Part shown: positions 40,891 to 58,872 of the stretch, in pieces
How positions within the stretch are numbered: the first letter of the stretch is position 1
Layout of the letters: every line of letters starts with the position of its first letter
From: Bacteroidia bacterium
GTDB lineage: Bacteria > Bacteroidota > Bacteroidia > 2-12-FULL-35-15
Length of the DNA: 61,654 bases
Assembly: GCA_046594925.1 (NCBI GenBank)
Contig: JBKJQG010000306.1
Span: 1-61,654 of the forward strand
Reading direction: 5' to 3'
The notes under the pieces: generated by a model
The model's database searches: none
Told to the model about the DNA's origin: nothing
The model's input: only the letters and a program-made list of their open reading frames with translations
Translations under genes and position numbers: made by a program

Positions 40891-40893
40891 TAT

Positions 40894-41712
40894 TTAGTCT
40901 TTCTTATTCTTATCCTGAAAATCCAAAGATTTAACACCTAAGAATTTCAGAAATTTTTTCGCATTGATCTTTAAGGTTTCCTTGATCTCGGTGATGGCTG
41001 TTTTGGTCATGCTTTCATCCGGACGGGTCTTAAAGCGTGAATCGCGGTAAACGAAATCCTTTCCTGCCGGTGTGTAGTAATAGGCGTAAAAGGATTTACG
41101 ACTTTCATCTTCCGGAATGTTGATCTTGGCATAACCGTGGTAAGAAGTCTCATCCGTTATCATAATAGCTGCCTGGTTGAAATAAGGCATTACTTTCGAC
41201 ATGCAATTCTTTACATCTTTGTCCCAAAACTCCAGTGCTCCGCCATATTCATCTTTCCAGTTCTTGTTCAGATAGATCAGAAGATTTAGCCTGCGGTGCA
41301 ATTTTGCAGCGGGATTCATATTCACATCCACGTGGATGTCGACAAAACTTCCAGGTCCGCCTTGATGAACTCCCGAACCCAACGCATCGTATGTTGAACT
41401 CAAACCTTCGATGCCGGTCACTTTGCTCATCCACTCGTACATTTCAGGAGTATTGATGAAGTCGCGCAGTTCATTGAACTGAGGATGGTAGCGGTCGAGA
41501 TGGTATTCTTCGGATTTATTTTCGTTGATGCTTTTGCGTTTTACTTTCAAGGCATCCAGCTTCGGAAAATTAGAATATAGCGTATTGGCAGCATCGTCCA
41601 GAAGGAAATTCGGCAAGGCAACATGTTTGCAGGGGATTGCGGACTCGAACTGAGCGCGGATCTCTTTTATTTTCTCGTCGGTCAAATAAACCGGATTGAT
41701 CAGATTTTTCAT
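40894..41712 (-). CDS. 2OG-Fe(II) oxygenase family protein
   Basis: 272 aa; FVDIHVDVN (HxD) and a later SYHGY His. TATTTTTG box on the minus strand at 41735-41742. Confidence 0.6.
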   Translation of the reverse strand: MKNLINPVYLTDEKIKEIRAQFESAIPCKHVALPNFLLDDAANTLYSNFPKLDALKVKRKSINENKSEEYHLDRYHPQFNELRDFINTPEMYEWMSKVTGIEGLSSTYDALGSGVHQGGPGSFVDIHVDVNMNPAAKLHRRLNLLIYLNKNWKDEYGGALEFWDKDVKNCMSKVMPYFNQAAIMITDETSYHGYAKINIPEDESRKSFYAYYYTPAGKDFVYRDSRFKTRPDESMTKTAITEIKETLKINAKKFLKFLGVKSLDFQDKNKKD

Positions 41713-41821
41713 AGGTAATAAGGGATTTCAAACACAAAAATACGTATTTATTGGAGATGATGACTCCCTATTATCGGGTAAAATCTGCGGTTTTTAACAG
41801 TTTTTACGAAAAAGGAATCGG

Positions 41822-41850
41822 TTTGAGAGAACCGTTTTTCCCTATATTTG
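41822..41850 (+). promoter_or_regulatory. Bacteroidota sigma-A type promoter (TTTG-N17-TATATTTG)
   Basis: TTTG at 41822-41825 and TATATTTG at 41843-41850, ending 27 nt upstream of the ATG at 41878. Confidence 0.5.
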
Positions 41851-41877
41851 TGGGTAAGACAAAAAGCCGCCATACCT

Positions 41878-44448: not shown

Positions 44449-44488
44449 TAAAAAATTCCGCCCGGGAAATCGTGGCGGATTTTTTTTT
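44449..44488. terminator. bidirectional rho-independent terminator
   Basis: A-rich run, TCCGCC (44457-44462), 11-nt loop, GGCGGA, T9. Lies between convergent yfhO and wzx. Confidence 0.75.
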
Positions 44489-45968
44489 AGATGTTGATCG
44501 AAAACCGTTTCAGGTTCTTTCGGATCTTGTTGTTAAGTTCCGGAGCTGCATTCATTTTAAACAGCAGGATCAGGAACAAACCTCCTACCAGACTGCTTCT
44601 GATGGCAATGTCAATGTATTTATCCGAAAACGCCGGAATGAAAAAGCTCGGAAGGATCGCTATCCCGGCTATCAAGATGATTTTGATTGAATTCAAATCG
44701 TAAGGCTGCATTCCGAATTTTACTTTCAGGAACAGAAAACGGATGATGTTATTGGCCGAAAGCGTAATGGCCGTGGCCAAAGCCGACCCGATAATACCAT
44801 AAATCGGAATAAAGATGAGGTTGGCAAGAATGATTACTCCCACCATTAAAAGCGTAAAGAAAGTGTCGTAACGATAATATTTTGAATTCGCGATGATCAC
44901 CTGGTTGATTCCTGTCGACATTTCTACCAGATAACCCACACTCAAAATGATGATCACATTTTTTCCGGATGCATAAGCTTCAGGGATAAGGTGCATGATG
45001 TTGTTGATGTTGGCGACTACACCAATGAATAAAAGAATTCCGATTGCCATTTGGTTGTTGCAGGATTTTTTATACAAAGAGGCCACTTCGATGAAATCTT
45101 CTTTTTTAAATGCTTCGGATACAACGCTGGTCATGATGCGGTAGAGTGAGCGGGCAGGAATTAGCATAATTGCGCCGATCTGAATCGCTATTCCATAGAT
45201 CCCGGTTTTTTCTTCCCCGAGCATAGAGTTGACCATGATCGTATCAATGTTCAGGATGATGGCTCCGGCTCCACCCGTTATGATGGCGTACGATCCTAAT
45301 TTGAGCATGTCCGTCTTTAGTTCCTTGGTCATGAACCCCTTCACTGGCCTGATGTGCCATTCGCCCTGCCGGATAATGAAGAACAGTAAAATGAAAGTGG
45401 GAATGCAAATGATCAATATGTAGAGGAAGATAAAGATGCTGAAATCGATGAGTTTTAAAAAGTAGACACCCAATAAGATCAGAATAAGAATACGCTGAAG
45501 GAAGTCTTTACTGAACGATCCAATGACGGAACTAAATCCTGCTCTTAAGTAACTGTCGAAGATGTTAAAAAAAATCGTGAAGAAAGTTAAGGGGAGCAAA
45601 TAGAACAAGTAGGTGACAAAAAGAGGTGATTTGGCGGCGCTATCTTCTATCAGTTTTGGCTGTATGAAAATGAAAACAATGCAGCATAAGAGAAACCCTA
45701 TAGCAGAAACAAGCATAGCGTAGAATAGAAATCCGTTGTGCCCTTTCTCTTTGTCCCTGAAATAAGGAAAAAATCGGTTGGTGACAGAAACGAATCCCAA
45801 ATTGGAGAATTGAGCGAATAAAGCAGCATAGGAGATTAATAATCCCCGTGCACCATTTTCTGCGGGACTTAGTAAATGTGCGATCCACATTACCGTCAGA
45901 AAGCCCAGCCCAGCCCCTAGATAGGAGTAGATGGCATTCTTGGTAGCTTGTTTTTCTATGATGCCCAA
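44487..45968 (-). CDS. Wzx-type oligosaccharide flippase (MOP superfamily), copy 1
   Basis: 493 aa with about 12-14 TM helices. N-terminus is paralogous to the ORF at 59688. Confidence 0.75.
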   Translation of the reverse strand: MGIIEKQATKNAIYSYLGAGLGFLTVMWIAHLLSPAENGARGLLISYAALFAQFSNLGFVSVTNRFFPYFRDKEKGHNGFLFYAMLVSAIGFLLCCIVFIFIQPKLIEDSAAKSPLFVTYLFYLLPLTFFTIFFNIFDSYLRAGFSSVIGSFSKDFLQRILILILLGVYFLKLIDFSIFIFLYILIICIPTFILLFFIIRQGEWHIRPVKGFMTKELKTDMLKLGSYAIITGGAGAIILNIDTIMVNSMLGEEKTGIYGIAIQIGAIMLIPARSLYRIMTSVVSEAFKKEDFIEVASLYKKSCNNQMAIGILLFIGVVANINNIMHLIPEAYASGKNVIIILSVGYLVEMSTGINQVIIANSKYYRYDTFFTLLMVGVIILANLIFIPIYGIIGSALATAITLSANNIIRFLFLKVKFGMQPYDLNSIKIILIAGIAILPSFFIPAFSDKYIDIAIRSSLVGGLFLILLFKMNAAPELNNKIRKNLKRFSINI

Positions 45969-45975
45969 TGTGTAC

Positions 45976-46686
45976 CTAGTTTATGCTTCTAACTATAACA
46001 AAAGCTTCTGCATACGATTTTCCAACGGCAACACCCCATCGCTGTGCTTGGATCTTCAATGCTTCTGGTGATCTTGGATGCGGATATTTTCTCTTTTCAA
46101 ATTCATAGGATTCCATTCCTTTGATTTTTGCCTGGATGTTTTTTTCTGAGACTTCAAAAAATAAATTCGGAATAAAATGTCTTGGATCTGTAGATGCTCT
46201 CCATTCTGTTCCGGAAGGTGTTTCAAAAGCGATGATCGTTGAAACTTTTTCGTTTTCCATCGGGCGAGTCGCGGTAATAACCGCATCAAATGTTTTCTGA
46301 TGGTCGATGTTCAGGTCGCCGCCATGGTGTGTGAAGATCACATCGGGCTTGAATTCATTTTTTTCTTTTTCAACGACTTTCACAATGTCAAGAAGATTCA
46401 CGTCGTCGAAACGGTTGTCCGGAAATTCGTAAATGCTCACGGTTTTATATCCTATGGCGTCTTTCGCTGAGTGAATGTTCTTTTTATGTGTTTCCAGTTC
46501 TTTTTTCCAGGCTTCAGAATCGCGCTGATCGGAGCGGGAAGTAATGCCTTCTCCGAGGATGACTACGTGGGTAATCACGTTGTATTCCGTTATCAGTTTG
46601 TGCATGGTTGCACCCAGTCCTAAAAGTTCATCATCAGGATGAGCCACTACGATCATGATCCGTTTGTCTTTTAATGATTGTAACAT
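45976..46686 (-). CDS. PIG-L/LmbE-family N-deacetylase
   Basis: 236 aa; VVAHPDDELLG and HHGGDLNIDH motifs. Confidence 0.85.
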   Translation of the reverse strand: MLQSLKDKRIMIVVAHPDDELLGLGATMHKLITEYNVITHVVILGEGITSRSDQRDSEAWKKELETHKKNIHSAKDAIGYKTVSIYEFPDNRFDDVNLLDIVKVVEKEKNEFKPDVIFTHHGGDLNIDHQKTFDAVITATRPMENEKVSTIIAFETPSGTEWRASTDPRHFIPNLFFEVSEKNIQAKIKGMESYEFEKRKYPHPRSPEALKIQAQRWGVAVGKSYAEAFVIVRSIN

Positions 46687-46696
46687 TTTCTGTTAA

Positions 46697-47431
46697 TTAT
46701 AGTTGCTGCCAGGCTCTCACTCTCGGGATCGCCGGGCATACATCTTGGTTTATACTGGATAATTGAACGGTTTGATTGTCTGAATTTATGAAAAAATCTT
46801 CGTCTGTGCAAAATGCTGTCAGTGGCTGTTCTTTCAGGTAGCAAGCTGCTGTATCTATTCCGATCTTATAGCCGTCGTAATACACAGAATAAAAGCCTGT
46901 GTGCCCAAAAATTACGATCTTATCAAAATACTTTGTTTTCTGTTTTATGAAATCGTAACGGTTCAGCATTAATTTTTCTGCCGGGATCTTCTCAATGCTT
47001 GTATCATAGAGTTCAGGAGGAATTCCGCTATGTGTCATCACGTATTTATCCGTCTGATGATAATTTTTCAGTGAGGCAAAGAATGATCCGAACTCAGAAA
47101 ATAGTTTTTTCTTCGTTTCTGAAAGGGTTGCGTTCTTGCCGACCGACAGCACCGTGTTTTTTCCGCCGTATCGGATCAAGTGAGCTGCATGTTCATCGTT
47201 CTCACTGTTCAGTTGTTCCCAATAGTATTCATGGTTTCCGCGTAAAAAGACGCAGGAATATTCTTTGGACAATTGAACCAGATGCTCGAGAACCGCATAA
47301 GCGTCTTCTCCTTTGTCGACATAATCGCCAATGAATACGAAGGAGGGAGCCTTATCCTGCGCGATGATGTTTTTGAGAAGCAATTTCAATTTGCTAATCT
47401 CTCCGTGTATGTCGCCGATTACATAGTTCAT
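46697..47431 (-). CDS. calcineurin-like metallophosphoesterase (PPP/ApaH-like)
   Basis: 244 aa; GDIHG, GDYVDKG, GNHE, GHTG motifs. Confidence 0.85.
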   Translation of the reverse strand: MNYVIGDIHGEISKLKLLLKNIIAQDKAPSFVFIGDYVDKGEDAYAVLEHLVQLSKEYSCVFLRGNHEYYWEQLNSENDEHAAHLIRYGGKNTVLSVGKNATLSETKKKLFSEFGSFFASLKNYHQTDKYVMTHSGIPPELYDTSIEKIPAEKLMLNRYDFIKQKTKYFDKIVIFGHTGFYSVYYDGYKIGIDTAACYLKEQPLTAFCTDEDFFINSDNQTVQLSSINQDVCPAIPRVRAWQQL

Positions 47432-48318
47432 GCGGAGATGCTATTTAAATATCCTTTAAGGGAATGCTCATAATTGTCGTTGATAGTGACGTATTTCCTG
47501 ATCTTACTGTTGTCCAGATAAAAGTCTACATATCCTTTGTTGCCTTCTACACGTATTTCGGATGCCGAATCCAATGCTTTTTTTATCAGGGAGGCGCACT
47601 CAATGAAGTCTGTTTGCCTTCCGTAACTTAGATTGAAAACTTCTATAGAATGCTTCCAGTCGTATTTCTCAATGAAGCTGTTAAGGTAGTCGGAAAGGTC
47701 ATTTACATGGATCGTCTCCCAATATCCCAAAGATTCTGAGTTGAGAACTACTGCTTCATTTTTTAAACATTTTAGGGCTGTGTTGTAAATATACCCCGAA
47801 GTTCTGTCCCCTCCGTATATTCCCGGGGGCCGAAGGATCACTCCTTTTGGGCCGCTGGATTTGCAGTGAAAGCTAAAAATGTTCTCTCCAAGCAATTTGC
47901 TTAAGCCGTATGTACTCAATGGATCCAGTTCTCCGTCTTCCTTTACCGGTAAACTGTTGTTCTTTCCGTAAACAGTCATTGAAGAGACATAAATTATTTT
48001 TTCGGTCAGATGGTGCTCTTTTACGAAAGCCAGAAAAGAGCCCAATCCCAGCGTGTCCAGCTGAATGTATTCTTCTTTTAGTTCGGTCGTTCCCAATCCT
48101 TTTAAGGTAGAGGCCAGGATGATGATTTCTTCGTAGTGTCGCGAACGGATATTTTCAAATGTTTTTTTGTCGAGCAAGTCCAACTTAATCGATTCGTCTT
48201 TGCCTGTAGTGGAAGTAAAAAAAATGGAACGACTGGAAATTGAATTTCGGAGATGGGAACCCAGATACCCGGATCCACCTACAAGCAATATGTTTTTGCT
48301 CTTATTCATAGAAAACAT
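47428..48318 (-). CDS. NAD-dependent epimerase/dehydratase (extended SDR)
   Basis: 296 aa; VGGSGYLGSHL, YGLSK. The start could instead be the Met at 48309. Confidence 0.8.
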   Translation of the reverse strand: MFSMNKSKNILLVGGSGYLGSHLRNSISSRSIFFTSTTGKDESIKLDLLDKKTFENIRSRHYEEIIILASTLKGLGTTELKEEYIQLDTLGLGSFLAFVKEHHLTEKIIYVSSMTVYGKNNSLPVKEDGELDPLSTYGLSKLLGENIFSFHCKSSGPKGVILRPPGIYGGDRTSGYIYNTALKCLKNEAVVLNSESLGYWETIHVNDLSDYLNSFIEKYDWKHSIEVFNLSYGRQTDFIECASLIKKALDSASEIRVEGNKGYVDFYLDNSKIRKYVTINDNYEHSLKGYLNSISA

Positions 48319-49246
48319 TTTCCCATCTTCTGTGAAGGATCAAATTTTCTTTGGGCCTGATCAAGGGGCCGTCGTACTTTTTATCGGAGTAGGTCAGCCA
48401 TAATCCGACTTCATCAATGCCATCTTCATAACTCATGATGGAAGTGGTAGAGAAACGAGGATTTATTTCAAATATTTTTATTGCTCCTTCTGGAGTGATG
48501 TATAATTGAATATTAATGGGGCCTTTGGGTTTCAAAGTCTTGTTTATTTCCAATGCGATCTTTTCGATTTCAGCATTTGTTTCAGTGATTGCCTTGATGG
48601 TGATTCCTTTTTTACTCAGTATTTTCCGGCAACTGATGTAAATGACATCGTCCAGATTATTGATCAGCACTCCTACGGTGTATTCCTGTCCCTGGATGCA
48701 TTCCTGAACGAGTAGTTCTTTTGGTTGATATTTTTCCAACACGTAGTAAGCTTCCAGTTCTTGTTTGGAACTGATCTTGCGGATGCCTCTGCTTCCTCTT
48801 CCCGAAATGGGTTTTACAAAATATTCTTTGCCGCCTTCCCACTTGAACTCATCACCGGTCCAGGTTGCGATGGAAGAAATCTTTTTGGCGTCCAATTCTT
48901 TCATCAGCAGGTCTTTTCTCATGGCAAGCAGACAAAAGGCCAGATCTGGAGAAAGGAGTCTTAAGGATGGGACTTGTTTTTTTATTTCGTGGGCGACTTC
49001 TATTTCTTCATCTATCAAAGGAATGTAAACATCAATCGCGTTTTTCTCAATGATGTTCTTGATGAAGGGAATGTAGGCCGGGTCACGGACAAGAGGAGCA
49101 GGAAAAAAATTATAAGATGGATAAAGTTTTGTTAATGAGCTGTCGGCATCGACATAGAACAATTCATAGGAGTCTTTTAGCTTTTCATGAAGGTAGGGGA
49201 ACAATGATCCGCCCAGGCCCGACAACAGCAACTTTGTTTTAATCAT
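48302..49246 (-). CDS. ATP-grasp domain protein
   Basis: 314 aa; FVKPISGRGSRGI, LVQECIQGQEYTV, IFEINPRFS pattern. Confidence 0.75.
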   Translation of the reverse strand: MIKTKLLLSGLGGSLFPYLHEKLKDSYELFYVDADSSLTKLYPSYNFFPAPLVRDPAYIPFIKNIIEKNAIDVYIPLIDEEIEVAHEIKKQVPSLRLLSPDLAFCLLAMRKDLLMKELDAKKISSIATWTGDEFKWEGGKEYFVKPISGRGSRGIRKISSKQELEAYYVLEKYQPKELLVQECIQGQEYTVGVLINNLDDVIYISCRKILSKKGITIKAITETNAEIEKIALEINKTLKPKGPINIQLYITPEGAIKIFEINPRFSTTSIMSYEDGIDEVGLWLTYSDKKYDGPLIRPKENLILHRRWENVFYE

Positions 49247-50277
49247 AACATTTCCCAGGTTATTGGTTCATCATCTTCAATGTTCTTCTGGGCGGTTTTT
49301 CCGACAACTAAATGGATCTGTGAAGGATGTATTCCAAGCCCCGGACGCTTGATGATGATGTCATCATTAGTGATTACCTGGCCCTTACTTATTTTATTCC
49401 TCGCAATGATGCTTCTTCTGGCTTTCGTGAACAATTCTTGTTCTTCAGCGCGTGGACCGTTCTTCAAACCATCTCCGAAAGCACTTTCAATATCCCTGAT
49501 CTTACCGATCATCGCTTTCAGTTCTTCCGGTTCGATCGCAAAATTATGATCAGGACCTGGAAGCTGACGTCCGAGTGTATAATGTTTTTCGATCACTTTT
49601 GCTCCCATTGCGACAGCTGCACAAGGAATGTGATCTCCTAAAGTATGATCTGAATATCCGGTGATCACTCCAAACATGTTGGCCATCGTGCTCATGGAAT
49701 TCAGGTTTGACAAATGTGCGGGTGCCGGGTAAAGCGAAGTACATTGAAGAACTATGATCTGGTCATTGTTGTTTTGTCTGCAGATATTTATCGCGGTTTC
49801 AATTTCTGCCGTCGTCGACATACCCGTTGAGAACATCACTGCTTTGCCGGTCTTGGCGATTGTTTCCACCAGGCGAATGTCCACCATGTCGTAGGACGCG
49901 ATCTTGATGACCGGCATTCCTACGGAGACAGCTATTTCTATCGCTTCTTTATCGCAGGGTGAATCTAAAAAATCAATGTTTAGTTTATCACAGAGGGGAG
50001 CTAACTTTGAATGCCAGCTGCGGTCGATCTCCAGTTTCTCTATCAATTCATAAATGCCTTCTTTATAGAGATCGATCTTGGGTGTCCTTTTGGAATAGTG
50101 ATCTTTTGCTTTGAACGTTTGAAATTTTACGGCATTGGCACCTGCATTTTTTGCTTTTTCAATTAACTCACAGGCCATGTCGAAATTTCCATTGTGATTG
50201 CTGCCAATTTCAGCAATTACATAGCAAGGCTGGCCGGAACCGATTTCGGAAAATTTTGTTTTGATCGTTTTTTTCAT
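49243..50277 (-). CDS. pseI: NeuB-family nonulosonic acid synthase (pseudaminic acid synthase-like) with SAF domain
   Basis: 344 aa; CYVIAEIGSNHNGNFDMA..AGANAVKFQTF; C-terminal SAF-like segment. Assignment to Pse rather than Neu or Leg rests on the neighbouring pseB/pseG/pseH. Confidence 0.8.
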   Translation of the reverse strand: MKKTIKTKFSEIGSGQPCYVIAEIGSNHNGNFDMACELIEKAKNAGANAVKFQTFKAKDHYSKRTPKIDLYKEGIYELIEKLEIDRSWHSKLAPLCDKLNIDFLDSPCDKEAIEIAVSVGMPVIKIASYDMVDIRLVETIAKTGKAVMFSTGMSTTAEIETAINICRQNNNDQIIVLQCTSLYPAPAHLSNLNSMSTMANMFGVITGYSDHTLGDHIPCAAVAMGAKVIEKHYTLGRQLPGPDHNFAIEPEELKAMIGKIRDIESAFGDGLKNGPRAEEQELFTKARRSIIARNKISKGQVITNDDIIIKRPGLGIHPSQIHLVVGKTAQKNIEDDEPITWEML

Positions 50278-50381
50278 TTAATCGTCTGCTTATCTGGTAT
50301 GAAGCAACAGAATCAATGCAAATATAAGAAATTTACTCAGATGAGGGTGGTTTGTAAGATAGCTATATGCTTAGCTGTCAA

Positions 50382-51857
50382 TTATTTGTATCGAAGAACA
50401 CTGTAGGAAGAATAGCGAATACCCTTTGCGACTGATGATCCTCTTCGTTTGAACCCAAGCTTTTCGAAAACACGGTTAGACGCCATGTTGGACACTTTTG
50501 CTTTTGCAGTGATCAGGTCATTTGGATAGTTGAGGTAATAGTCTTGGATGGATTTCTTTAAAATGATTTCTCCATATCCTTTGCCACGGTATTTTTTTGC
50601 GATGGAATAATCTATTTCCGCGGTGGTGTTTGTTCTGTCGAGGCGCACCTGTCCCAAAGGAATTCCATTTTTCTCGAGGATGTAAAGTACAGCGTTTTCA
50701 TTTTTCAATTTTCTATCAAACCAACTTTTATGATCAGCAAACAAAATGGGTTCGGTGCTGACTGAATTCTTGCGGACGTCTGTGTCATTCGCCCATTTAA
50801 AATAAGTGAGGACATCTTTGGAGTTTGCCCGACGAAGTGTCAATCCTCTTTCTTTTTCTAAATTGTCGAAGATGCCCGACAGGTTCTTTTTTGAATTTCC
50901 GGAAAAATAGGTGTTCCTGTTTTTGAAGTATGCTGGTGCGGTGGAACTGTTCTGCAATTTAGAAAGTTGTGTGTTGAAGGACGCGAGCGGGTAAGCAATT
51001 TTTGAACGGATCAAAAATTTGTAGATGTTCTTTTGATTCAGTACCGTTTGGTAGACAAACAGAAAGCCGCCAACGGAAGCATATTCGTAGGAGATGGTGC
51101 TGGCAGAACAAATGGCGACAGAAGATTTTTTCATCAATGAATGAATCTTTTCTTCGGAAAGGTTATGATGAATGGCAATCGAAGTGTGTTTGTTCTTCTT
51201 GATGATTTCATTCAGCTCATTCTTGTGTGGATAGAAACTTCCTATGACGATGTCGATCGACTGAATCGTTTTGTTTTTTAGGCAAACGGACAAAGCTTTC
51301 TTGCTGAAGTTCTGCTGATCTGTCCCCCCCATATTTATAAAAGCCTTATGTGTCTTTTTTAAAGACGGGAGCTTCTGTTTTTTTAAGAAAGAACTTCTTA
51401 GGATCGCATACTGTGTACCCAGATAGAGTTTTGAAAACTGTTCGATGGAATAGTCCATGGGCTTTATTCCTTCACTGTGATTAATGACCACATCTGCTGC
51501 AAAAGAACGATCATAGATGTCGTCGATGCAGACTAACTTAAAACACTTTTCCTTTACTTCCAGCTGATAGTTGAGGTCGAATCCATATCCGTCGAGGATA
51601 ACAATGTCATTACTGCGAATGAATTCAGTCGCTATTTTTTTTGCTTCTGCATCGCTGTTCTTTGATACAGGAATTTCTATCAGTTCATCACAAGTATTTT
51701 TGATCTGCTCTTTTAGAAATGCGTCTGTTTTCTGAATGATGAAGACAATGCGGTATTTAGCTTTTAGGATGGAAGCCAGGCTCAATGCGCGGATGACATG
51801 TCCATATCCGGCTACAACGTTGCCATCAGCTCTGAATATGATCCTGTTTTTGTCCAC
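50382..51857 (-). CDS. PseG-like UDP-sugar hydrolase fused to a PseH-like GNAT N-acetyltransferase
   Basis: 491 aa. N-terminus IIFRADGNVVAGYGHVIRALSLA (PseG signature). The C-terminal ~170 aa is a GNAT (YRGKGYGEIILK...NRVFEKLGF). Confidence 0.75.
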   Translation of the reverse strand: MDKNRIIFRADGNVVAGYGHVIRALSLASILKAKYRIVFIIQKTDAFLKEQIKNTCDELIEIPVSKNSDAEAKKIATEFIRSNDIVILDGYGFDLNYQLEVKEKCFKLVCIDDIYDRSFAADVVINHSEGIKPMDYSIEQFSKLYLGTQYAILRSSFLKKQKLPSLKKTHKAFINMGGTDQQNFSKKALSVCLKNKTIQSIDIVIGSFYPHKNELNEIIKKNKHTSIAIHHNLSEEKIHSLMKKSSVAICSASTISYEYASVGGFLFVYQTVLNQKNIYKFLIRSKIAYPLASFNTQLSKLQNSSTAPAYFKNRNTYFSGNSKKNLSGIFDNLEKERGLTLRRANSKDVLTYFKWANDTDVRKNSVSTEPILFADHKSWFDRKLKNENAVLYILEKNGIPLGQVRLDRTNTTAEIDYSIAKKYRGKGYGEIILKKSIQDYYLNYPNDLITAKAKVSNMASNRVFEKLGFKRRGSSVAKGIRYSSYSVLRYK

Positions 51858-51863
51858 GTTCGT

Positions 51864-52652
51864 TTATTTAGAAGATATTTTGGTAACCCTGTTCAAAGTT
51901 TCGATTAATTCCTTGTTGTCTTTATATTTGACAACAAGCGAGTCATTGATCTTCGCTATCTCCGGATTCGCATCCAGGAATTGGATGACATCTCTGAGAT
52001 CGGGGTCAACGCCGATTTTTGAAAAATGGTCTTCAATAACGTTGAATAAGGTCAAATCTTCTTCGTAATCAAGTGTAAGCCTGTAGTCACGAATCAGATC
52101 GGCTGGCAGATCTACTTTGTTCAATTTGAAGTAATCCGGATTGTTGGTGAAATAAAACGACATATACTCCGAATAGTCGGCATTCGGAAAAAAGCTTTTT
52201 GCTTTTCTCAGTGCATCTGAATTGATGATCTCTAGATTGGTTCCGATCGCCGCAGTCGTGCCTATCGTATAGTCTGCATTGTTTTCGAGGTGAGATTTTA
52301 ATACAACTTGAAAGATCTCATTCGTAACAAAAGGCATGTCGGCGGTGACTCTTGCAAATACATCAATGTGGTATTTATTCACAACATCCACGTAGCGTTG
52401 CATCACATCATCGGGTTCCCCCTGAAAGAATTTTACTTCCGGACTGTAGGTGTGTTTTGCAAGTTCTCCATCTTCAGGCAGTGTTGATGTGGCGAGAACG
52501 GTAGTGTTGACACCTTTGAAGCGCAGTGTGTTTTTAATGCAATATTCTACTGAACTCAGGTTGCCGATCTTCAGCAATGCCTTCCTTGTCAGCCTGGTCG
52601 ACTTTAACCGGCAGGCTATGATGGTTCCGATGTTTAAATTTTTCTTGTCCAT
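51864..52652 (-). CDS. cytidylyltransferase (SpsF/PseF/NeuA family)
   Basis: 262 aa; IIACRLKSTRLTRKAL N-terminal motif. Confidence 0.75.
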   Translation of the reverse strand: MDKKNLNIGTIIACRLKSTRLTRKALLKIGNLSSVEYCIKNTLRFKGVNTTVLATSTLPEDGELAKHTYSPEVKFFQGEPDDVMQRYVDVVNKYHIDVFARVTADMPFVTNEIFQVVLKSHLENNADYTIGTTAAIGTNLEIINSDALRKAKSFFPNADYSEYMSFYFTNNPDYFKLNKVDLPADLIRDYRLTLDYEEDLTLFNVIEDHFSKIGVDPDLRDVIQFLDANPEIAKINDSLVVKYKDNKELIETLNRVTKISSK

Positions 52653-52655
52653 TGT

Positions 52656-53687
52656 TTATGAAACTAATTTTTCCAGTTCATCGATTTCTTCGAGTGCTTC
52701 AAATTGAGTTTGAAAGATGAAGGACCACTTTGAACTTCCTTTTTCAGTCAACTCCTTCATTATGTAAAGTAAACGTTTTAAAACATCCGTCTTTCCCAGG
52801 ACAATTAATGCTGCCAAACTTTTTTCGGGAAAGGAAAGTTGAAATTCGGCCTTTAATTGAAGAGCAATCTTTTTATGATCAGACGCTGTGGCCGCCTCAT
52901 TCAGTGTCATCAGCTGGCGCATGCATTTATAGAGACCAAAGCCTAGCGAAATTTCAATCGTCGTGTTTTGGAAACTCTCGAAGTCGGTCAGTAATTTAAG
53001 TTTCTTGTTCTCAAAGATCAGATTGTGCGGGTGGATGTCGACATGAAAAATCGAATTATGATAATTGTGTTTATTGTTTTCGAAAAGCGCTCTCGATTTT
53101 TCGTATTCGGAAAGTATGCGCTCGAGGTGTCCGTTTTCAATGCCTTCGACTTTTCCTGTGTTCTTTAATTTACCCACCAGGAGGTCTTCTTCATTTGTAA
53201 AGAAGCTCCGTTCCGGGAGGTCTTGCAACTTGCGGGGGTTGTTGAATGAAGCATCGTAAAGCGTTTTCATTGCTGCAACAAGGGTTGGCCATTGCTCAAG
53301 GGAGGAACCGAAATAATTTCCGTTCTCAAAAAAAGTAAGACAATAGCAATGGTCTGCGTCAGAACTGATAAGTTTGCCTTGTTTGTCCGGAACGAATTGA
53401 ATGGAAGGGAAGCTACTGTCTGAAATGCGGACAGTCCATTCAGCCTGCGCGGATAAAGTTTTGTGTTTTGACAGATCCGCGCGTTTCAGGATGTAGATGC
53501 TATTCGCAGTCACAACCTTCCAGTTGCTACTGTTCAGCTCAAAGGCCCCAATCCCATAGATTTCTTTTACTACAATATTTTCGTAATGTCTTTTAATGAC
53601 CGCGGTCAGTTTTTCGGTTTCCGGAACTGATAGGATGGAAAAGACGGGTGACGGAGCGGAAAAAATATTTTTCTTGAACAGGTACAT
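52656..53687 (-). CDS. APH/choline-kinase-fold small-molecule kinase
   Basis: 343 aa; Brenner motif HVDIHPHN and TDFES (DFG-equivalent). Confidence 0.7.
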   Translation of the reverse strand: MYLFKKNIFSAPSPVFSILSVPETEKLTAVIKRHYENIVVKEIYGIGAFELNSSNWKVVTANSIYILKRADLSKHKTLSAQAEWTVRISDSSFPSIQFVPDKQGKLISSDADHCYCLTFFENGNYFGSSLEQWPTLVAAMKTLYDASFNNPRKLQDLPERSFFTNEEDLLVGKLKNTGKVEGIENGHLERILSEYEKSRALFENNKHNYHNSIFHVDIHPHNLIFENKKLKLLTDFESFQNTTIEISLGFGLYKCMRQLMTLNEAATASDHKKIALQLKAEFQLSFPEKSLAALIVLGKTDVLKRLLYIMKELTEKGSSKWSFIFQTQFEALEEIDELEKLVS

Positions 53688-53697
53688 TCAGCAGGAT

Positions 53698-54477
53698 CTA
53701 AAAACTTTTCTTAACCAGTCCTCCGTCGATCGGTATGACTGTTCCTGTGATGTAATTGGATTCTTCGCCGGCGAGAAAGACGGCCATGTGTGAAAAATCT
53801 TTCGGGGATGCGATCCTTTGTATTGGAATGCTTGCTCCAACATTGATGATCACTTCATCCAATGTTTTTCCGGATGTGTCTGCTTGTTTTTGGAAAAGAC
53901 TGATCAGTCGGTCCGTCATCACAGCACCCGGGCATAAAGTATTGATGGTTACTCCGTCTTTCGCAACCAACAGTGAGGTTGATTTCAATGCATTGATGAG
54001 CATTGCTCGGAAGCTTGCCGATAGGATCATTCCGGCTGTGGGTTCGATTGCAATGGAAGAACTGATGTTTATGATTCTTCCGAATTTATTTTTTTGCATG
54101 TCTGGCACGAATGCTTTTAAAAGCATGATGGAGCTTTTGAATTGTTGCTGATAGTGAGTGTCCCAGTCTTCGAGTGATACGTCCTCGAATGTTCCCGGCG
54201 TTGGCCCTCCCGAATTCAGAACCAGGATAGAAGGAGCAAGGGACAGTTTTCGGATGTCGGAAATTAAATTGCTGACAGAATCTGCAAGGGAATAATCAGA
54301 TGGAATGGCATGGATTCCGGCAGAGGGAAATTGTTTCTTTAGTTCAGATTCGGTTTCCTGCAATCGACCACTACGTCCTGTGATGATGACATCAAATCCT
54401 TTTTCCAAAAGCCCTTGGGCGATCGCTTTTCCGATTCCTGCTGTAGAGCCCCCTACAAGTGCAATTTTTTTAGCCAT
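53698..54477 (-). CDS. atypical SDR-fold protein lacking the catalytic Tyr
   Basis: 259 aa; GGSTAGIGKAIA and NISSS are present, but the YxxxK position reads S-A-S-F-R. No Tyr occurs in IAIEPTAGMILSASFRAMLINALKSTSLLVAKDG. Confidence 0.75.
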   Translation of the reverse strand: MAKKIALVGGSTAGIGKAIAQGLLEKGFDVIITGRSGRLQETESELKKQFPSAGIHAIPSDYSLADSVSNLISDIRKLSLAPSILVLNSGGPTPGTFEDVSLEDWDTHYQQQFKSSIMLLKAFVPDMQKNKFGRIINISSSIAIEPTAGMILSASFRAMLINALKSTSLLVAKDGVTINTLCPGAVMTDRLISLFQKQADTSGKTLDEVIINVGASIPIQRIASPKDFSHMAVFLAGEESNYITGTVIPIDGGLVKKSF

Positions 54478-54481
54478 TTTT

Positions 54482-55186
54482 TTACAATGATTTTTGATAA
54501 GTAGTCAGTCTTTCTCTCAGCTTCTCAGAATAGCCCAGTTTTGTGGTTTCAATAAGCAATGCATCCAGGTACTTGCCTAAGGATAGATTGTAGTCCGATG
54601 GAAAAGGAAGTAATTCCTCTCTGATTTCTTCAATGTAATTTGTTCTGACCTGATCATCCGGATTCAGACCAAGCACAAAAAGATTGTCAATTTTGTCGAG
54701 CAGTTTCACAAGGACCAAAGATGTTCCTTTGTTGAAGATAGCTTTGTAATAAGATTTCTGGATGCTCGGAAAATGTGCTTTTCTGTCGATTACGAGTGTG
54801 TCAATGCCCGAAGAGATGAGTTCATTAAAACTGTTCTTCAACTCTTCGATCGTTATTTCTGTCGTTTCAGGAACGTTGTGAAGCAGTGCGATGACGATGT
54901 AATCAGAATGGATGTCGGGCTTCACTTTCAACAAGTAGGAGGCAAGGCGCAAAGGATGACTCAGATAACTGGATTTCAAATGGTTCTTTGAAAAGTCAAG
55001 ATTTTTTGCGTACTGCAATGCGTCGAGGATGTTCTGTTCTTCCCTGTTGTATTGACTTAGAAGGTCAAGAAACTGTTTTTCGGTAAGAGATGAATCGGAA
55101 CACAGGCTGGTCATTTTCTCAGCTCTTTCGGAGTCAAAATCTTTGAAAATGAGCATGTCATTGATGATTAAATTCATTTGAATCAA
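54482..55186 (-). CDS. RelA/SpoT-type HD (HD_4) hydrolase-like protein with a degenerate metal site
   Basis: 234 aa; SHPLRLASYLL...IALLHNVPETTE...VKLLDKIDN parallels HP..VA..L...AALLHDV.EDT...KLADRLHN. HD is changed to HN and ED to ET. Confidence 0.6.
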   Translation of the reverse strand: MIQMNLIINDMLIFKDFDSERAEKMTSLCSDSSLTEKQFLDLLSQYNREEQNILDALQYAKNLDFSKNHLKSSYLSHPLRLASYLLKVKPDIHSDYIVIALLHNVPETTEITIEELKNSFNELISSGIDTLVIDRKAHFPSIQKSYYKAIFNKGTSLVLVKLLDKIDNLFVLGLNPDDQVRTNYIEEIREELLPFPSDYNLSLGKYLDALLIETTKLGYSEKLRERLTTYQKSL

Positions 55187-56025
55187 TCTAAGGAACCGTA
55201 TTCAGGAACCAATTTCAATACTTCTAAGTTTTTTTGTTTTGCCAATTCGAATACTTTCGGGTCAAACCGGGATACTTGTAAGTAGCCTTTAATGTCGTCG
55301 CGGCCCAGCACGTGTTTTTCAATGTATCTGTCGAGATGTTTTGATTTTACGGCGAAGGTCATAAAAAGTGTTGCTCTTTCTTTTTGCTGATCTTTCTTCA
55401 TAAATGCAGGAACCATTCCTTCTCGTCCCGCTTTGTTGATCATCAGGTTCTTGAAAAACTTGAATCGTACGGCATTTCCGCTGTGCATGGTCCGCAGGCT
55501 CCATATTACCACATCTCCTTCTTCACTGTCGACGAATACCGGTTTTCCATTCGCCTTTTTATGGGAACCGACCTGGATCTTCAATCCTCCGCTGTAATTC
55601 TTGTGATCCTGCAGATAGATGGCGAGACGAACTATCGTGTATTCTCCCTGCCAATCAGGCGCGTTGAGGTCGGTGCGGTCGACATTGTCTCTGTGGAATC
55701 CTCTGAATCCTGTTCCGAAATGATAATTGCTGTCTCCGAAATACACGGGGTCTCCGCCCAATACTTTTTTCACCAGAAATAAGATCCTATCATCCAGCAG
55801 GTATTTACGCAGCAGGTCTTTGCTCAGGATATCGCCTTTTGCATAGACTGCATTTGACATTTTTGAAGGATGCTTGAATGTCAGGTTCTTTTTTTTGTCT
55901 TCCTCAAAAGCAGCATAAGCATCTTTTCTGATCTGATCAATTTCGGCTTTGCTGAAAACATTTTTGATGAGGAGAAATCCTTCATCGTCAAATTTTTTTT
56001 TGTCTATGTTTAAATTGACATCCAT
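55183..56025 (-). CDS. PhyH-family Fe(II)/2OG dioxygenase
   Basis: 280 aa; GFHRDN (HxD) and MHSGN; 4-nt overlap with the downstream HD-like gene. Confidence 0.7.
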   Translation of the reverse strand: MDVNLNIDKKKFDDEGFLLIKNVFSKAEIDQIRKDAYAAFEEDKKKNLTFKHPSKMSNAVYAKGDILSKDLLRKYLLDDRILFLVKKVLGGDPVYFGDSNYHFGTGFRGFHRDNVDRTDLNAPDWQGEYTIVRLAIYLQDHKNYSGGLKIQVGSHKKANGKPVFVDSEEGDVVIWSLRTMHSGNAVRFKFFKNLMINKAGREGMVPAFMKKDQQKERATLFMTFAVKSKHLDRYIEKHVLGRDDIKGYLQVSRFDPKVFELAKQKNLEVLKLVPEYGSLD

Positions 56026-56053
56026 CTTTTTGATTTATATATTTTTGCAGGTT

Positions 56054-57070
56054 TTAGGCTGTAAAAGTAGCATCCACGTGTTGAATAATTAATTTTCGGA
56101 CGTCCTCAACAGTCAGCCATTCCTTGTTTTCTCCGGAATTGTACTGGAAGCCTTGTGGAACGGGTTTGGCATTAAAGGTCTTGATGAATTCGTTCAGATT
56201 GAAATTTGGAACCTGAGGAAGAATAGCATAATATTTTCCAAGATCATAAGTTGAAAAAGAGTCGGAAGAAGTAATCATCTCTTCGTGTACTTTTTCTCCG
56301 GGACGGATGCCAATCACTTCCTGCTTGCACTCAGGGCCAATGGCCGTGGCTACATCCGTGATTTTGTAAGAAGGAATTTTAGGAACGAAGATTTCGCCAC
56401 CCCAAGCCGTTTCCAATGCATGCAACACCATTTCCACCCCATCCTGAAGGGAAATGTTAAAACGGGTCATGTTTGGATCTGTGATGGGCAGAATGCCTTC
56501 TTTTTTCTTTTTCATGAAGAATGGAATCACCGAACCGTTGGAGCCCATGACATTTCCATAACGGACCACGGAGAACTTAATGTCGGCCTTTCCCTTGATG
56601 TTATTGGCTGCAACGAATAATTTGTCGGAACACAATTTGGTAGCCCCATACAGGTTGATCGGAGCCGCCGCTTTGTCGGTCGACAGAGCCACTACATTCT
56701 TAATGCCCATTTCCATGCAGGCATTGATCACGTTCTCTGCACCAAGCACGTTGGTCTTCACACATTCCATCGGATTGTACTCGGCAATGGGAACGTGTTT
56801 CATCGCAGCGGCATGGATCACATAATCTATTTCAGTGAATGCTTTTTTTAAACGGTCGAAATCCCTCACATCACCAATGAAATATCTGATTGCAGGGTAT
56901 TTGGCGTGCGGGTATTCCTGCGCCATTTCAAACTGCTTTTGCTCGTCACGGGAAAAGATGACTAAGCGTTTTACTTTTGGAAATTTGGAGAGTATGTTCT
57001 TAGTTAAATGTTTTCCGAGAGATCCGGTACCGCCGGTAATTAAAATTGATTTGCCGTTTAAATCTAACAT
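56054..57070 (-). CDS. pseB: UDP-N-acetylglucosamine 4,6-dehydratase (inverting)
   Basis: Start set at the ATG at 57070 (MLDLNGKSILITGGTGSLGK). FIGDVRD, HAAAMKHVP, YGATK. The ORF-track TTG at 57097 lies in the -7 box. Confidence 0.85.
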   Translation of the reverse strand: MLDLNGKSILITGGTGSLGKHLTKNILSKFPKVKRLVIFSRDEQKQFEMAQEYPHAKYPAIRYFIGDVRDFDRLKKAFTEIDYVIHAAAMKHVPIAEYNPMECVKTNVLGAENVINACMEMGIKNVVALSTDKAAAPINLYGATKLCSDKLFVAANNIKGKADIKFSVVRYGNVMGSNGSVIPFFMKKKKEGILPITDPNMTRFNISLQDGVEMVLHALETAWGGEIFVPKIPSYKITDVATAIGPECKQEVIGIRPGEKVHEEMITSSDSFSTYDLGKYYAILPQVPNFNLNEFIKTFNAKPVPQGFQYNSGENKEWLTVEDVRKLIIQHVDATFTA

Positions 57071-57094
57071 AGTTCGGGTTTTTGTAACAAGTCC

Positions 57095-57126
57095 CAAAAT
57101 TAAGCAGAGTTTAGCGAAATACCAAA
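57095..57126 (-). promoter_or_regulatory. Bacteroidota sigma-A type promoter of pseB (TTTG-N20-TAATTTTG)
   Basis: Minus strand reads aatcTTTGgtatttcgctaaactctgctTAATTTTG, ending 24 nt upstream of the ATG at 57070. Confidence 0.5.
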
Positions 57127-57161
57127 GATTTTCAAGAATGCTCAGATAGGCGAAGAGGGTC

Positions 57162-57842
57162 TTATTTTAGTGGGTTTTGAGCCATAAAACTGCCTAGATT
57201 TTGGAAATTGTGTTTGTTCTTTTTCAGCCATTCCAGGTCTTTGTCCCACCATTTGAATTGAAGCTGGTATTCGATCTCATCCTGACTGAAACGATATTTG
57301 ATGATCTTTGCAGGTACACCACCCACAATGCTGTAGGGTTCAACATCTTTAGTAACCACGGCACCGGAGCCGATAATGGCGCCATCACCGATCTTAACTC
57401 CGGATCTTACAGTTACGTTATTGCCTATCCACACGTCATTCCCTATTTCTGTATGCGGATATTCATCAAAGAGGTTCTTTTCAACGATCACCAGTCCGGA
57501 CGACTGTCCGATGGTGGAATAGAATAACGGATGGATGGAGACGAATTCTGCCGAAGGGTGCGCGCCCATCCCCGTGCTGACGTTTGGACCTATGCAGGTG
57601 AATTTCCCCACTTTGGTGTTGAAGATCTGTGATTCCCTGGCCACATAAGTGTAGTCGCCTAATTCAGAATTGCGGAGTCTTGCGAATTTGTAGACGGTAT
57701 TGTAAGTGTTGAATTTGCAGTCTTTCACTTCCGCCATGTATTCCACGCGAAGGTGTTTGCCGCTGTATTTTAATTGAAGACTCCATTTTTTATAGAGCCA
57801 GCGAAGCCAGTAAGTAAATGGATTTAGGAAGAGTGCCGTCAT
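57162..57842 (-). CDS. hexapeptide-repeat (XAT/CatB-like) acetyltransferase
   Basis: 226 aa; left-handed beta-helix repeats IGNDVWIGNNVTVRSGVKIGDGAIIGSGAVV. Confidence 0.8.
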   Translation of the reverse strand: MTALFLNPFTYWLRWLYKKWSLQLKYSGKHLRVEYMAEVKDCKFNTYNTVYKFARLRNSELGDYTYVARESQIFNTKVGKFTCIGPNVSTGMGAHPSAEFVSIHPLFYSTIGQSSGLVIVEKNLFDEYPHTEIGNDVWIGNNVTVRSGVKIGDGAIIGSGAVVTKDVEPYSIVGGVPAKIIKYRFSQDEIEYQLQFKWWDKDLEWLKKNKHNFQNLGSFMAQNPLK

Positions 57843-57844
57843 TA

Positions 57845-58720
57845 CTATAATTTTTTTCTTTCAAATGCATCAATAAAACTCACTTCACTGGCATTGTATA
57901 TTTTGCAGTTCCTGGTTTCAGCATATTTCTGAATGACGTGATAACCGTAAAACATTTTACCAAATGTATGAAACAATTCATGCATTTTGAAACTGTCGGT
58001 CTGAGTCAGATCCTTGTAAAAGATCCGGTAATTCGTTTGCTTTTCGTCCTCATAAAAATGAAAGTCTTTCAAGCAAACTTCATTTTTCTCATTCACATGC
58101 AGTTGCTCGTGCCAGGTATGGTCAGCTCCAAGCAGATATAATTCCTTAAAACCGATGTTGATGCCTAAAAATAGACAAGCGACAAGAATATTCTGTGACT
58201 GAGGCATTGCCAAGTTCCTTTTATAAAAAGAATGGGATGCATTTTCAAAACCTTTGAAGACCGTATAATTGAAATAAGTAATTTCGATGTGCTCGTTCTG
58301 CTGAGCAAGCAGTCGGAATGCTTTCGATCTTTTTGCGTGGACTGGCACGAGCAACTGCAGTTTCCAGGTTGTTTTCTTTCTCAGATTCTCCAGGCAGTCT
58401 GCAACCATCTGGTTGGGATTTTTAACCCAATAAACCGGATCCAGCATTGCATAATAGCCCGGCTTTAATTTTTCGTACTCATCAGTAACAGCAAAATTGT
58501 TCACACACATAAGCGAATGAGCAGCAATGAATTCTGGATGCTTTTCAATGGATGTTTTTAAAGAGGGCCCATTGCCTAAGATAATACAGGTATTGCTTTT
58601 TGCTTCGGGCAGCTTTACCGAAAAGTTGGATTTGGCCAATACCTTCAGCACCGAAATACCGGAACCGGTGAATTGACGAATGAATTCCCCCATGTATTTA
58701 TATGTTGTTTCGGCCGACAT
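57845..58720 (-). CDS. DUF115/MptE-like protein (putative nonulosonic-acid transferase, Maf/GT42-like)
   Basis: ILGNGPSLK N-terminal motif as in Cst-II/Maf. Start set at the ATG at 58720. A TACATTTG box lies on the minus strand at 58727-58734. Confidence 0.55.
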   Translation of the reverse strand: MSAETTYKYMGEFIRQFTGSGISVLKVLAKSNFSVKLPEAKSNTCIILGNGPSLKTSIEKHPEFIAAHSLMCVNNFAVTDEYEKLKPGYYAMLDPVYWVKNPNQMVADCLENLRKKTTWKLQLLVPVHAKRSKAFRLLAQQNEHIEITYFNYTVFKGFENASHSFYKRNLAMPQSQNILVACLFLGINIGFKELYLLGADHTWHEQLHVNEKNEVCLKDFHFYEDEKQTNYRIFYKDLTQTDSFKMHELFHTFGKMFYGYHVIQKYAETRNCKIYNASEVSFIDAFERKKL

Positions 58721-58872
58721 GCATTGCAAATGTAGTAAAATTATGCTTTTGAGGTTTTAACACGTTGGGCACATAGTTTTTAAACTTTATAATGTGCATT
58801 GGGCCTCTTAAATTCTCAAACCTTTGCAAAATTCATTAATATTGTAGTCAGATCCCTTATCGCCGAAAATAA

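Follow-up and report, generated by a model that had tools for sequence, protein, structure and literature searches.

A three-gene cassette within a pseudaminic acid-type operon of a Bacteroidia bacterium recurs beside cytidylyltransferases in glycan loci of distant lineages

As decorations of flagella, S-layers, capsules, and lipopolysaccharide (LPS), nonulosonic acids shape host and phage recognition. The described system closest to the one analyzed here is the biosynthesis of pseudaminic acid (Pse) activated with cytidine monophosphate (CMP) in Campylobacter jejuni and Helicobacter pylori, whose genes usually follow the order B-(C)-F-G/H-I. Work on Tannerella forsythia noted that the enzymes that modify nonulosonic acids are largely unknown (PMC5378307). 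We analyzed a stretch of 61,654 nucleotides (hereafter, the window) from a Bacteroidia bacterium (contig JBKJQG010000306.1 of GenBank assembly GCA_046594925.1), where open reading frames, Pfam, and NCBIfam matches delineate one densely packed glycan operon on the minus strand (44487-58729). Its framework is the known CMP-Pse pathway: PseB and PseG pass the cut-offs of their equivalog models, a NeuB-family synthase and a CTP_transf_3 cytidylyltransferase are present, and the usual gene order is matched. Compared with that pathway, two sets of four genes are added, one separating pseB from the cytidylyltransferase and the other following neuB. The first four encode a PhyH-family dioxygenase, an HD protein, a short-chain dehydrogenase/reductase (SDR), and an APH-fold kinase. 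The last three of these form a cassette that travels between glycan loci of distant lineages along with a cytidylyltransferase. In agreement with the original prediction, made from the sequence of the window, these genes add tailoring functions to a Pse-type operon, and we found no described pathway and no characterized close homologue for them in solved structures, family libraries, or the literature.

Recurrence of the cassette beside CMP activation

The four genes are intact on the minus strand, between pseB on one side and the cytidylyltransferase, pseG-H, and neuB on the other, which confirms the reading frames and positions first proposed. They encode a PhyH-family Fe(II)/2-oxoglutarate dioxygenase of 280 residues (55183-56025; Pfam PF05721, 44.2 bits for a cut-off of 22), a SpoT-like HD protein of 234 residues when read from a TTG start (54482-55186; Pfam HD_4, 24.9 bits, under the cut-off of 27.2), an SDR of 259 residues that lacks the catalytic Tyr and Lys (53698-54477; adh_short_C2, 123.8 bits), and an APH-fold small-molecule kinase of 343 residues (52656-53687; Pfam APH, 23.5 bits for a cut-off of 23.2). 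The gaps of 10 nt and 4 nt described between these genes stand. However, the 4-nt overlap described between PhyH and HD holds only with the TTG start: the alignment of orthologues favors an ATG at 55177, which leaves a spacer of 5 nt.

The order HD-SDR-APH, with genes that mostly overlap or nearly abut, characterizes the cassette across the 25 distinct loci that we examined in metagenomes and genomes. Since this order is repeated in independent genomes, the arrangement is not due to chance. The cassette is very rare, being present in 17 of 185,579 species-representative genomes, and a set of 5.8 billion proteins contains only 38 homologues of the HD protein and 22 of the kinase. Its carriers are nevertheless diverse. 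They include Bacteroidota (among them Sediminibacterium and Spirosoma), Planctomycetia, Gamma-, Beta-, and Alphaproteobacteria (a gammaproteobacterium, Comamonadaceae, a metagenome-assembled genome of Rhodospirillaceae, and Micavibrio), Omnitrophica, and a Methanoregula archaeon. Of the carriers found, all but Rhodoferax sp. TS-BS-61-7 (Comamonadaceae, locus L019) have records labelled as metagenome-assembled genomes. The search for occurrences outside glycan loci left the proposed link to glycans intact, as all 25 loci are glycan loci. Next to neuB or pseB, it is the three-gene HD-SDR-kinase unit that recurs, whereas the four-gene block is not constant.

In about 20 of the 25 loci, a cytidylyltransferase of some type is encoded at most two genes away from the cassette. 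These enzymes fall into three kinds: canonical NeuA-like enzymes, SpsF-like enzymes, and SpsF-like enzymes joined to a class-III aminotransferase. Loci of type A, to which the window belongs, have the order PseB-(PseC)-PhyH-HD-SDR-APH-CTP-PseGH-NeuB-ATPgrasp-Epim-Metallophos-PIGL, where CTP stands for the cytidylyltransferase. Those of type B have the order PseB-PseC-aldo-keto reductase-HD-SDR-APH, followed by the cytidylyltransferase fused to the class-III aminotransferase, PseG, and, further on, NeuB. In type C, a canonical NeuA-like cytidylyltransferase lies immediately before or after the cassette. The type-B fusion comes directly after the kinase in L008 (12542-14569), as it does in L021, L022, L024, and L031, and certain type-B loci encode a second cytidylyltransferase besides the fused one. 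In the Rhodoferax locus, the aminotransferase is a separate gene (12574-13923) and a single canonical cytidylyltransferase is encoded 7 kb downstream. The sugar pathways around the cassette vary too. Many loci are Pse-type (PseB/PseC/PseG). Among those of type C, some encode a NeuC-type 2-epimerase (L004, L032), and the locus of Micavibrio resembles an LPS-core region in which no NeuB is encoded within 10 kb. Finally, the partner gene of the cassette can be PhyH, an aldo-keto reductase, or neither. The cassette is thus linked to CMP activation independently of the type of nonulosonic acid, and the three kinds of cytidylyltransferase in such varied sugar loci suggest that its target is probably shared by ulosonic acids at the free-acid stage.

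The neighborhood of kinase and cytidylyltransferase had originally been read differently, as a means to activate a second substrate: a CDP- or CMP-linked substituent that would be transferred onto the glycan. The two genes do adjoin in most loci, and the presence of two cytidylyltransferases in some type-B loci could be explained in this way. Furthermore, the SpsF-like enzyme of the window (51864-52652; PF02348, 66.8 bits) matches the general CTP_transf_3 family but not the PseF equivalog model, is only 24% identical to its counterpart in a cassette-free locus, and has the uncharacterized protein 6oew as best solved relative in a single-sequence search of solved structures. Yet it is the single cytidylyltransferase of the operon and occupies the position of PseF. 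Were it devoted to a second substrate, the operon would lack a CMP-nonulosonic acid synthetase despite encoding a nonulosonic acid synthase and an MptE-like transferase. The known targets of CTP_transf_3 enzymes are the anomeric hydroxyls of ulosonic acids rather than phosphate esters. The Rhodoferax locus keeps the cassette with its one canonical cytidylyltransferase 7 kb away, and both the HD protein and the SDR would be left unexplained. Hence, we regard this less parsimonious explanation as very unlikely.

The dioxygenase has a history of its own. With 340 homologues, PhyH is much more frequent than the HD protein and the kinase. Its iron triad H111-x-D113...H181 is intact and invariant in an alignment of 25 homologues, as are R217, R233, and R242, which are candidates for the Arg that contacts the C5 carboxylate of 2-oxoglutarate, and its best solved relative is the ectoine hydroxylase EctD. 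In L029, a locus devoid of the cassette, the order is PseB-PseC-...-CTP_transf_3-PhyH-PseG/GNAT-...-NeuB-Wzx, with PhyH adjoining CTP_transf_3. In L030 (1847-3235), a single protein of 462 residues (P0164) has an SpsF-like cytidylyltransferase at its N-terminus and a PhyH part (residues ~198-460) that is 60% identical to the PhyH of the window. The basic Pse-type locus of Bacteroidota is PseB-PseC-CTP-PhyH-PseGH-NeuB, and PhyH is its resident member. Since it adjoins or is fused to CTP_transf_3 where the cassette is missing, PhyH is a resident partner of the CMP-activating enzyme, and the fusion in L030 is Rosetta-stone evidence for a hydroxylase acting together with CMP activation. We are therefore confident that the four genes, initially regarded as one module, are two units: PhyH on one hand and the HD-SDR-kinase cassette on the other.

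The simplest reading is that this active-looking hydroxylase would act, most likely, on the nonulosonic acid or on its CMP ester. Oxygenases that work on sialic acid or Kdo at or after activation reportedly exist, namely the CMP-Neu5Ac hydroxylase (CMAH) and the Kdo 3-hydroxylase KdoO, and the fusion in L030 suggests a comparable role for PhyH. The families differ, as CMAH is said to be a Rieske enzyme and KdoO to fall outside Pfam PhyH.

Other genes recur close to the cassette: pairs that encode a split transketolase/E1-like protein, and a DUF4910/DUF2172 aminopeptidase-like gene, which we take to be of the family of Campylobacter Cj1295. They were observed in L025 (6672-8021, 9309-11123), L005 (16909-18625), and L010 (6280-8258), and hint at a further decoration, of a two-carbon or glyceroyl type.

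Active sites and nearest relatives of the cassette proteins

The residues by which the three cassette proteins had been described are all confirmed, with the addition that the SDR has lost its Lys as well as its Tyr. The HD protein is predicted to have the fold of SpoT, Mesh1, and the small alarmone hydrolases. Its AlphaFold2 model (predicted local distance difference test, pLDDT, of 94.2) has as top Foldseek matches the small alarmone hydrolases, Mesh1, and the hydrolase domains of Rel, with a probability of 1.0 and template modelling (TM) scores up to 0.7. It has their fold, and H67, H93, E97, and D154 preserve the Glu of ED together with three out of four Mn ligands. Unlike them, it has HN for HD and ET for ED, its motif being LLHNVPET in place of LLHDVVED, so that the two acidic catalytic residues are gone. 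These replacements occur in all 27 aligned homologues and in every cassette locus with a readable motif. H67, H93, N94, E97, D154, D157, and N158 are invariant in the alignment. The cassette protein also differs by an extra N-terminal helical segment of ~50 residues and by its location in glycan operons, as opposed to the stringent-response contexts of Rel/SpoT relatives.

These relatives raise the possibility of a function at the nucleotide level, in which the kinase would phosphorylate the CMP-sugar, or else a cytidine nucleotide, at the 3' or 2' hydroxyl of its ribose, giving a donor similar to 3'-phosphoadenosine 5'-phosphosulfate (PAPS) or CoA, and the HD protein would strip this phosphate off once the nucleotide is spent. 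The structural relatives of the HD protein all have nucleotide 3'-/2'-(pyro)phosphates as substrates, be it (p)ppGpp, (p)ppApp, or NADPH, a complex of MESH1 with PAPS exists, and a cytidylyltransferase is nearly always beside the cassette. There may also be a precedent, as the modification of the Campylobacter capsule reportedly uses a 3'-phosphorylated cytidine diphosphoramidate. However, the Asp residues that catalyze hydrolysis are replaced, the fold of the kinase is that of small-molecule O-kinases rather than nucleotide 3'-kinases, and the SDR, although invariant, would have no role. Taken together, this makes a nucleotide-level function improbable.

The SDR keeps the cofactor motif GGSTAGIG, with G10, G14, and G16 invariant. 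Where the YxxxK motif is expected, the protein of the window reads L-SAS-F: Tyr and Lys are both replaced, with the catalytic Ser retained. Leu stands in for Tyr throughout the cassette loci, and the position of Lys is taken by Phe, Tyr, Thr, Met, Ala, Leu, or Val. A family motif, EP...M[IV]LS..xRA, is conserved. The best solved relatives of the SDR are 2z1n, AerF (6jh7), and BacG (3u49). When the profile of the family was compared with the PDB, AerF came out on top (E-value 2e-73, 250 bits), other Tyr-less SDRs scored 224-233 bits, and BacG scored 216 bits, whereas FabG-type keto-reductases did not exceed 213 bits. AerF is the NADPH-dependent reductase of an alkenal double bond in the Choi pathway of aeruginosin, and in the bacilysin pathway BacG/YwfH acts on a 2-oxo acid, H2HPP, whose conjugated double bond it reduces. 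Like the cassette SDR, AerF and BacG lack YxxxK, and they share its fold and its NADPH-type Rossmann motif. They differ in their setting, which is the synthesis of prephenate-derived amino acids instead of a sugar operon, and in the active-site loop, which is LSxxxRA in the cassette SDR and KSGVVN and TNSMMN in AerF/BacG. By sequence, then, the cassette SDR appears to cluster with Tyr-less C=C reductases of the AerF/BacG kind. This fits poorly with the initial suggestion that the dioxygenase and the SDR would oxidize a side chain.

A single locus lacks the SDR. In L017 (10001-12344), from Omnitrophica, the HD gene and the kinase gene are followed by one for a nitroreductase-family flavoprotein of 190 residues, which is possibly a non-orthologous replacement of the SDR. 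As circumstantial evidence, this arrangement suggests that the required reduction step is not a ketoreduction.

The loss of canonical residues (HD to HN, ED to ET, YxxxK to LxxxF) could also mean that the HD protein and the SDR are inactive scaffolds or regulators, leaving the kinase and PhyH as the only enzymes. That the two proteins may be scaffolds had been one of the initial suggestions. However, the replacements and many polar residues are invariant from Bacteroidota to Methanoregula, the SDR falls among active Tyr-less reductases and retains the glycine motif that binds NAD(P), and another reductase stands in for it in L017. Because the odd active sites are invariant across the families, they are unlikely to reflect decay. 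Compared with the closest locus (L012), all four genes have nonsynonymous divergences (dN) of 0.10-0.42 with saturated synonymous sites, a comparison that is only qualitative since saturation gives no dN/dS. This pattern indicates that the four genes are under purifying selection. We thus consider it extremely improbable that the two proteins are mere scaffolds.

The kinase has the motifs HVDIHPHN...DFE, of which HxDxHPxN and D(F/I/V)(E/D) are invariant across loci. In 27 sequences, K68 (the ATP-binding Lys), H215, D217, N222, and D235 are invariant, together with K254 and R305. The conserved basic residues K254, R257, and R305 are in the C-terminal part of the protein and would fit an anionic substrate. 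A single-sequence search of solved structures was uninformative (best E-value of 0.49). The AlphaFold2 model (pLDDT of 93.5) is a bilobal APH fold, whose Foldseek neighbors are homoserine kinase II and APH(9), both with E-values of about 1e-12, YtaA/CotI, N-acetylhexosamine 1-kinase, and amicoumacin kinase. None of these neighbors exceeds 18% identity. A role in aminoglycoside resistance is unlikely because the homologues occur in glycan operons in all cases in which the genomic context was examined. The kinase evolves faster than the other genes: the protein of the window is 52% identical to that of L012 (11460-12479), whereas the HD protein, SDR, PhyH, cytidylyltransferase, NeuB, and PseB are 75-92% identical between these loci.

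A candidate route of kinase-initiated deoxygenation

The association with cytidylyltransferases leads us to think that the cassette probably acts on the ulosonic acid around CMP activation. For the chemistry itself, we infer a substrate, a phosphorylation site, an elimination rather than a hydrolysis, and a product, as follows. The cassette would remodel the free ulosonic acid shortly before it is activated. In a 5,7-diacylamido-3,5,7,9-tetradeoxy nonulosonic acid, the only hydroxyls besides the anomeric one are O4 and O8, of which O4 is beta to the carbonyl at C2. A phosphate on O4 should therefore be a good leaving group, whose loss gives a 2-oxo-3-enoate. In the proposed route, the APH-fold kinase would phosphorylate O4 of the free acid, the SpoT-fold HD metalloprotein would remove the phosphate, probably by beta-elimination to the 2-oxo-3-enoate, and the AerF/BacG-like SDR would then reduce the C=C bond of this enone with NADPH. 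A 2-oxo-3-enoate is the type of substrate that AerF and BacG reduce. This reduction would yield a 3,4-dideoxy (4-deoxy) nonulosonic acid, to be activated with CMP by the adjoining cytidylyltransferase.

Kinase-initiated deoxygenation of sugars is established for GenP, GenB3, and GenB4 in the biosynthesis of gentamicin, where an APH-fold kinase turns a sugar hydroxyl into a leaving group and elimination is followed by reduction of the double bond (PMC7941887). The likeness is in logic only, since the elimination of GenB3 type depends on pyridoxal phosphate and on the class-III aminotransferase family, of which the window has no member. A parallel for the first step may be KdkA, from the LPS pathways of Haemophilus and Vibrio, which reportedly has a protein-kinase-like fold and phosphorylates O4 of Kdo, a 2-keto-3-deoxy ulosonic acid. 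Kdo 4-phosphate is chemically prone to beta-elimination. Unlike the proposed cassette kinase, which would use the free acid, KdkA is said to work on lipid-linked Kdo and the phosphate to stay on. Based on these analogies, the specific 4-deoxygenation scheme is put forward as a tentative proposal. We are slightly more doubtful that the cassette is a self-contained machine for the deoxygenation of ulosonic acids, leading to CMP-activated 3,4-dideoxy nonulosonic or octulosonic acids.

Several points weigh against this scheme. We know of no natural 4-deoxy nonulosonic acid, nor was any found in our literature searches, and we know of no phosphate eliminase with an HD fold. The structural neighbors of the kinase, distant and of many kinds, point to no particular substrate, and those of the HD protein hydrolyze nucleotide phosphates, so that for this protein the nucleotide-level role outlined above would fit at least equally well. 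The scheme accounts neither for the class-III aminotransferase of type B nor for the changes of the first gene, which can be PhyH, an aldo-keto reductase, or missing. One locus (L005) lacks a cytidylyltransferase within 10 kb, and its kinase gene is on the opposite strand.

Two other points concern the operon of the window. First, it lacks PseC: tblastn found no match in the whole 61.6-kb window at an E-value of 1e-3 or better, and no DegT-type gene is present anywhere in it. The spacer between PseB and PhyH, where relatives have PseC, is reduced to 28 nt (56026-56053). In L001/L014 and L002, PseC is encoded at this place, between PseB and PhyH, and more distant relatives (L014, L002, L029, L030) retain it. 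The position of PseC is occupied in L012 by a methyltransferase of 214 residues (8473-9117), and L013 (8845-9973), also without PseC, has a similar methyltransferase reading frame and a PhyH remnant full of stops. The operon may thus not be complete by itself. Second, the identity with the cassette-free locus L029 is high for PseB (85%) and PhyH (58%), but low for the cytidylyltransferase (24%), PseG-GNAT (35%), and NeuB (35%). Given these differences, the locus appears to be a mosaic, in which the HD gene and everything downstream were swapped as one block. As a consequence of such an exchange, the sugar made here may depart from Pse5Ac7Ac in more than one respect.

Another use of the kinase deserves consideration, in which the phosphate is a handle: the kinase would tag a sugar, acyl, or amine precursor, the SDR together with PhyH or the aldo-keto reductase would act on it, and the HD protein would remove the tag as a phosphatase. 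The routes through Neu5Ac-9-P or Kdn-9-P, or the amidation with a phospho-amine in the HS:2 capsule of Campylobacter jejuni, would be the analogues. A kinase and a protein with a phosphohydrolase fold do share one cassette, the best family and structural match of the kinase is homoserine kinase II, and type-A loci encode downstream an ATP-grasp ligase and a second phosphatase (a metallophosphoesterase in the window, replaced in L005 by one of the inositol-monophosphatase family). Type-C loci, however, have the cassette without ATP-grasp and without the second phosphatase. In addition, the HD protein lacks both Asp residues (HD, ED) on which hydrolysis by Rel/SpoT/Mesh1 relies, an SDR without Tyr and Lys is unlikely to perform an ordinary alcohol/ketone step, and the logic of the animal-type 9-phosphate does not apply to Pse-type sugars, which are 9-deoxy. 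A phosphate handle therefore seems rather unlikely to us.

The same logic of kinase, elimination, and ene-reductase applies equally to a beta-hydroxyacyl group, and the cassette might then make or trim an N-acyl group, for example by turning a 3-hydroxyacyl into a saturated acyl or by providing a hydroxy acid to the ATP-grasp ligase. Unusual N-acyl groups are indeed found on the nonulosonic acids of Bacteroidota, such as Pse5Am7Gra of Tannerella forsythia, whose genes are unassigned (PMC5378307). The operon encodes both a PIG-L deacetylase and an ATP-grasp ligase, and the DUF4910/DUF2172 gene adjoins the cassette in L025. Nevertheless, the cassette tracks the cytidylyltransferase, whereas the ATP-grasp and deacetylase genes are missing from many cassette loci, and the cassette shows no sign of a carrier protein or a CoA ligase. 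An action on the side chain is for us decidedly unlikely, and we retain the deoxygenation of the free ulosonic acid as our working proposal.

Three further candidates were put aside. Phosphonate chemistry of the PhnY/PhnZ kind, which also pairs PhyH and HD proteins, was discarded because the HD protein is of SpoT type, PhyH is outside the cassette, and there are no phosphonate genes. The idea that the class-III aminotransferase of type B is a GenB3-like eliminase gained no particular support: its closest relatives are glutamate-1-semialdehyde aminomutases, with matches to GenB-type enzymes about nine orders of magnitude weaker. Finally, an animal or Kdn-type 9-phosphate route was dismissed since a PseB-type pathway yields 9-deoxy sugars.

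The surrounding operon and its significance

The first half of the operon encodes, in the order of transcription, an MptE-like protein, a hexapeptide acyltransferase, PseB, PhyH, HD, SDR, the APH kinase, and CTP_transf_3, and the second half PseG-GNAT, NeuB, ATP-grasp, an RmlD-like protein, a metallophosphoesterase, a PIG-L deacetylase, and a Wzx flippase, all on the minus strand. At its head (57162-58729) are, by Pfam and NCBIfam, the MptE-like (Maf/DUF115-type) putative nonulosonic acid transferase and the hexapeptide acyltransferase, a pair that also opens loci L001, L012, L014, and L029. The top model for the acyltransferase (57162-57842) is TIGR03308, 'phosphonate metabolism transferase', with 148.8 bits, under its cut-off, and models of NeuD/PglD-type sugar N-acetyltransferases score lower. 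PseB (56054-57097), the inverting UDP-GlcNAc 4,6-dehydratase, reaches 515.5 bits with TIGR03589 for a cut-off of 407.75. After the cytidylyltransferase comes a fusion of PseG, the UDP-sugar hydrolase, with a PseH-like N-acetyltransferase (50382-51857). It reaches 196.6 bits with TIGR03590 for a cut-off of 153.55, scores 35.5 bits with the PseH model, under the cut-off of 93.1, and has a GNAT domain at residues 339-470. The NeuB-family nonulosonic acid synthase (49243-50277; PF03102, 273.9 bits) is just under the cut-off of NeuB_NnaB with 362.8 bits, and scores 290.3 bits with PseI, whose cut-off is 340.25.

Pfam matches identify the four genes that follow (45976-49246) as an ATP-grasp ligase, an RmlD-like epimerase/reductase, a metallophosphoesterase, and a PIG-L deacetylase. 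This block has the same order in L001, L002, L012, and L014 and is absent from L029 and L030; it is co-inherited with the cassette in the type-A loci of Bacteroidota. Beyond the operon (40003-44433), a YfhO-like membrane protein, a 2-oxoglutarate-Fe(II) oxygenase, and a canonical SDR are syntenic with L030 (7382-12050), where a radical SAM/SPASM gene follows. This stretch may be a conserved neighboring unit.

What emerges is a compact three-gene unit with consistently altered active sites in its HD protein and SDR, spread over several bacterial phyla and one archaeon. Together with the hydroxylase, it probably makes a still undescribed version of a sialic-acid-like sugar, and the chance that this involves genuinely new sugar chemistry is moderate. 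The fusion of PhyH to a cytidylyltransferase hints at a bacterial hydroxylase of activated sialic-acid-like sugars. If the proposed route is true, the cassette would produce a new class of monosaccharides, the 3,4-dideoxy ulosonic acids, not yet reported from nature. It would also reveal a new type of reaction for the SpoT/HD fold, a phosphohydrolase repurposed as a phosphate eliminase, and would show that kinase-initiated deoxygenation reaches beyond antibiotic pathways, into cell-surface glycans. Rhodoferax sp. TS-BS-61-7 offers a possible experimental handle on this chemistry.

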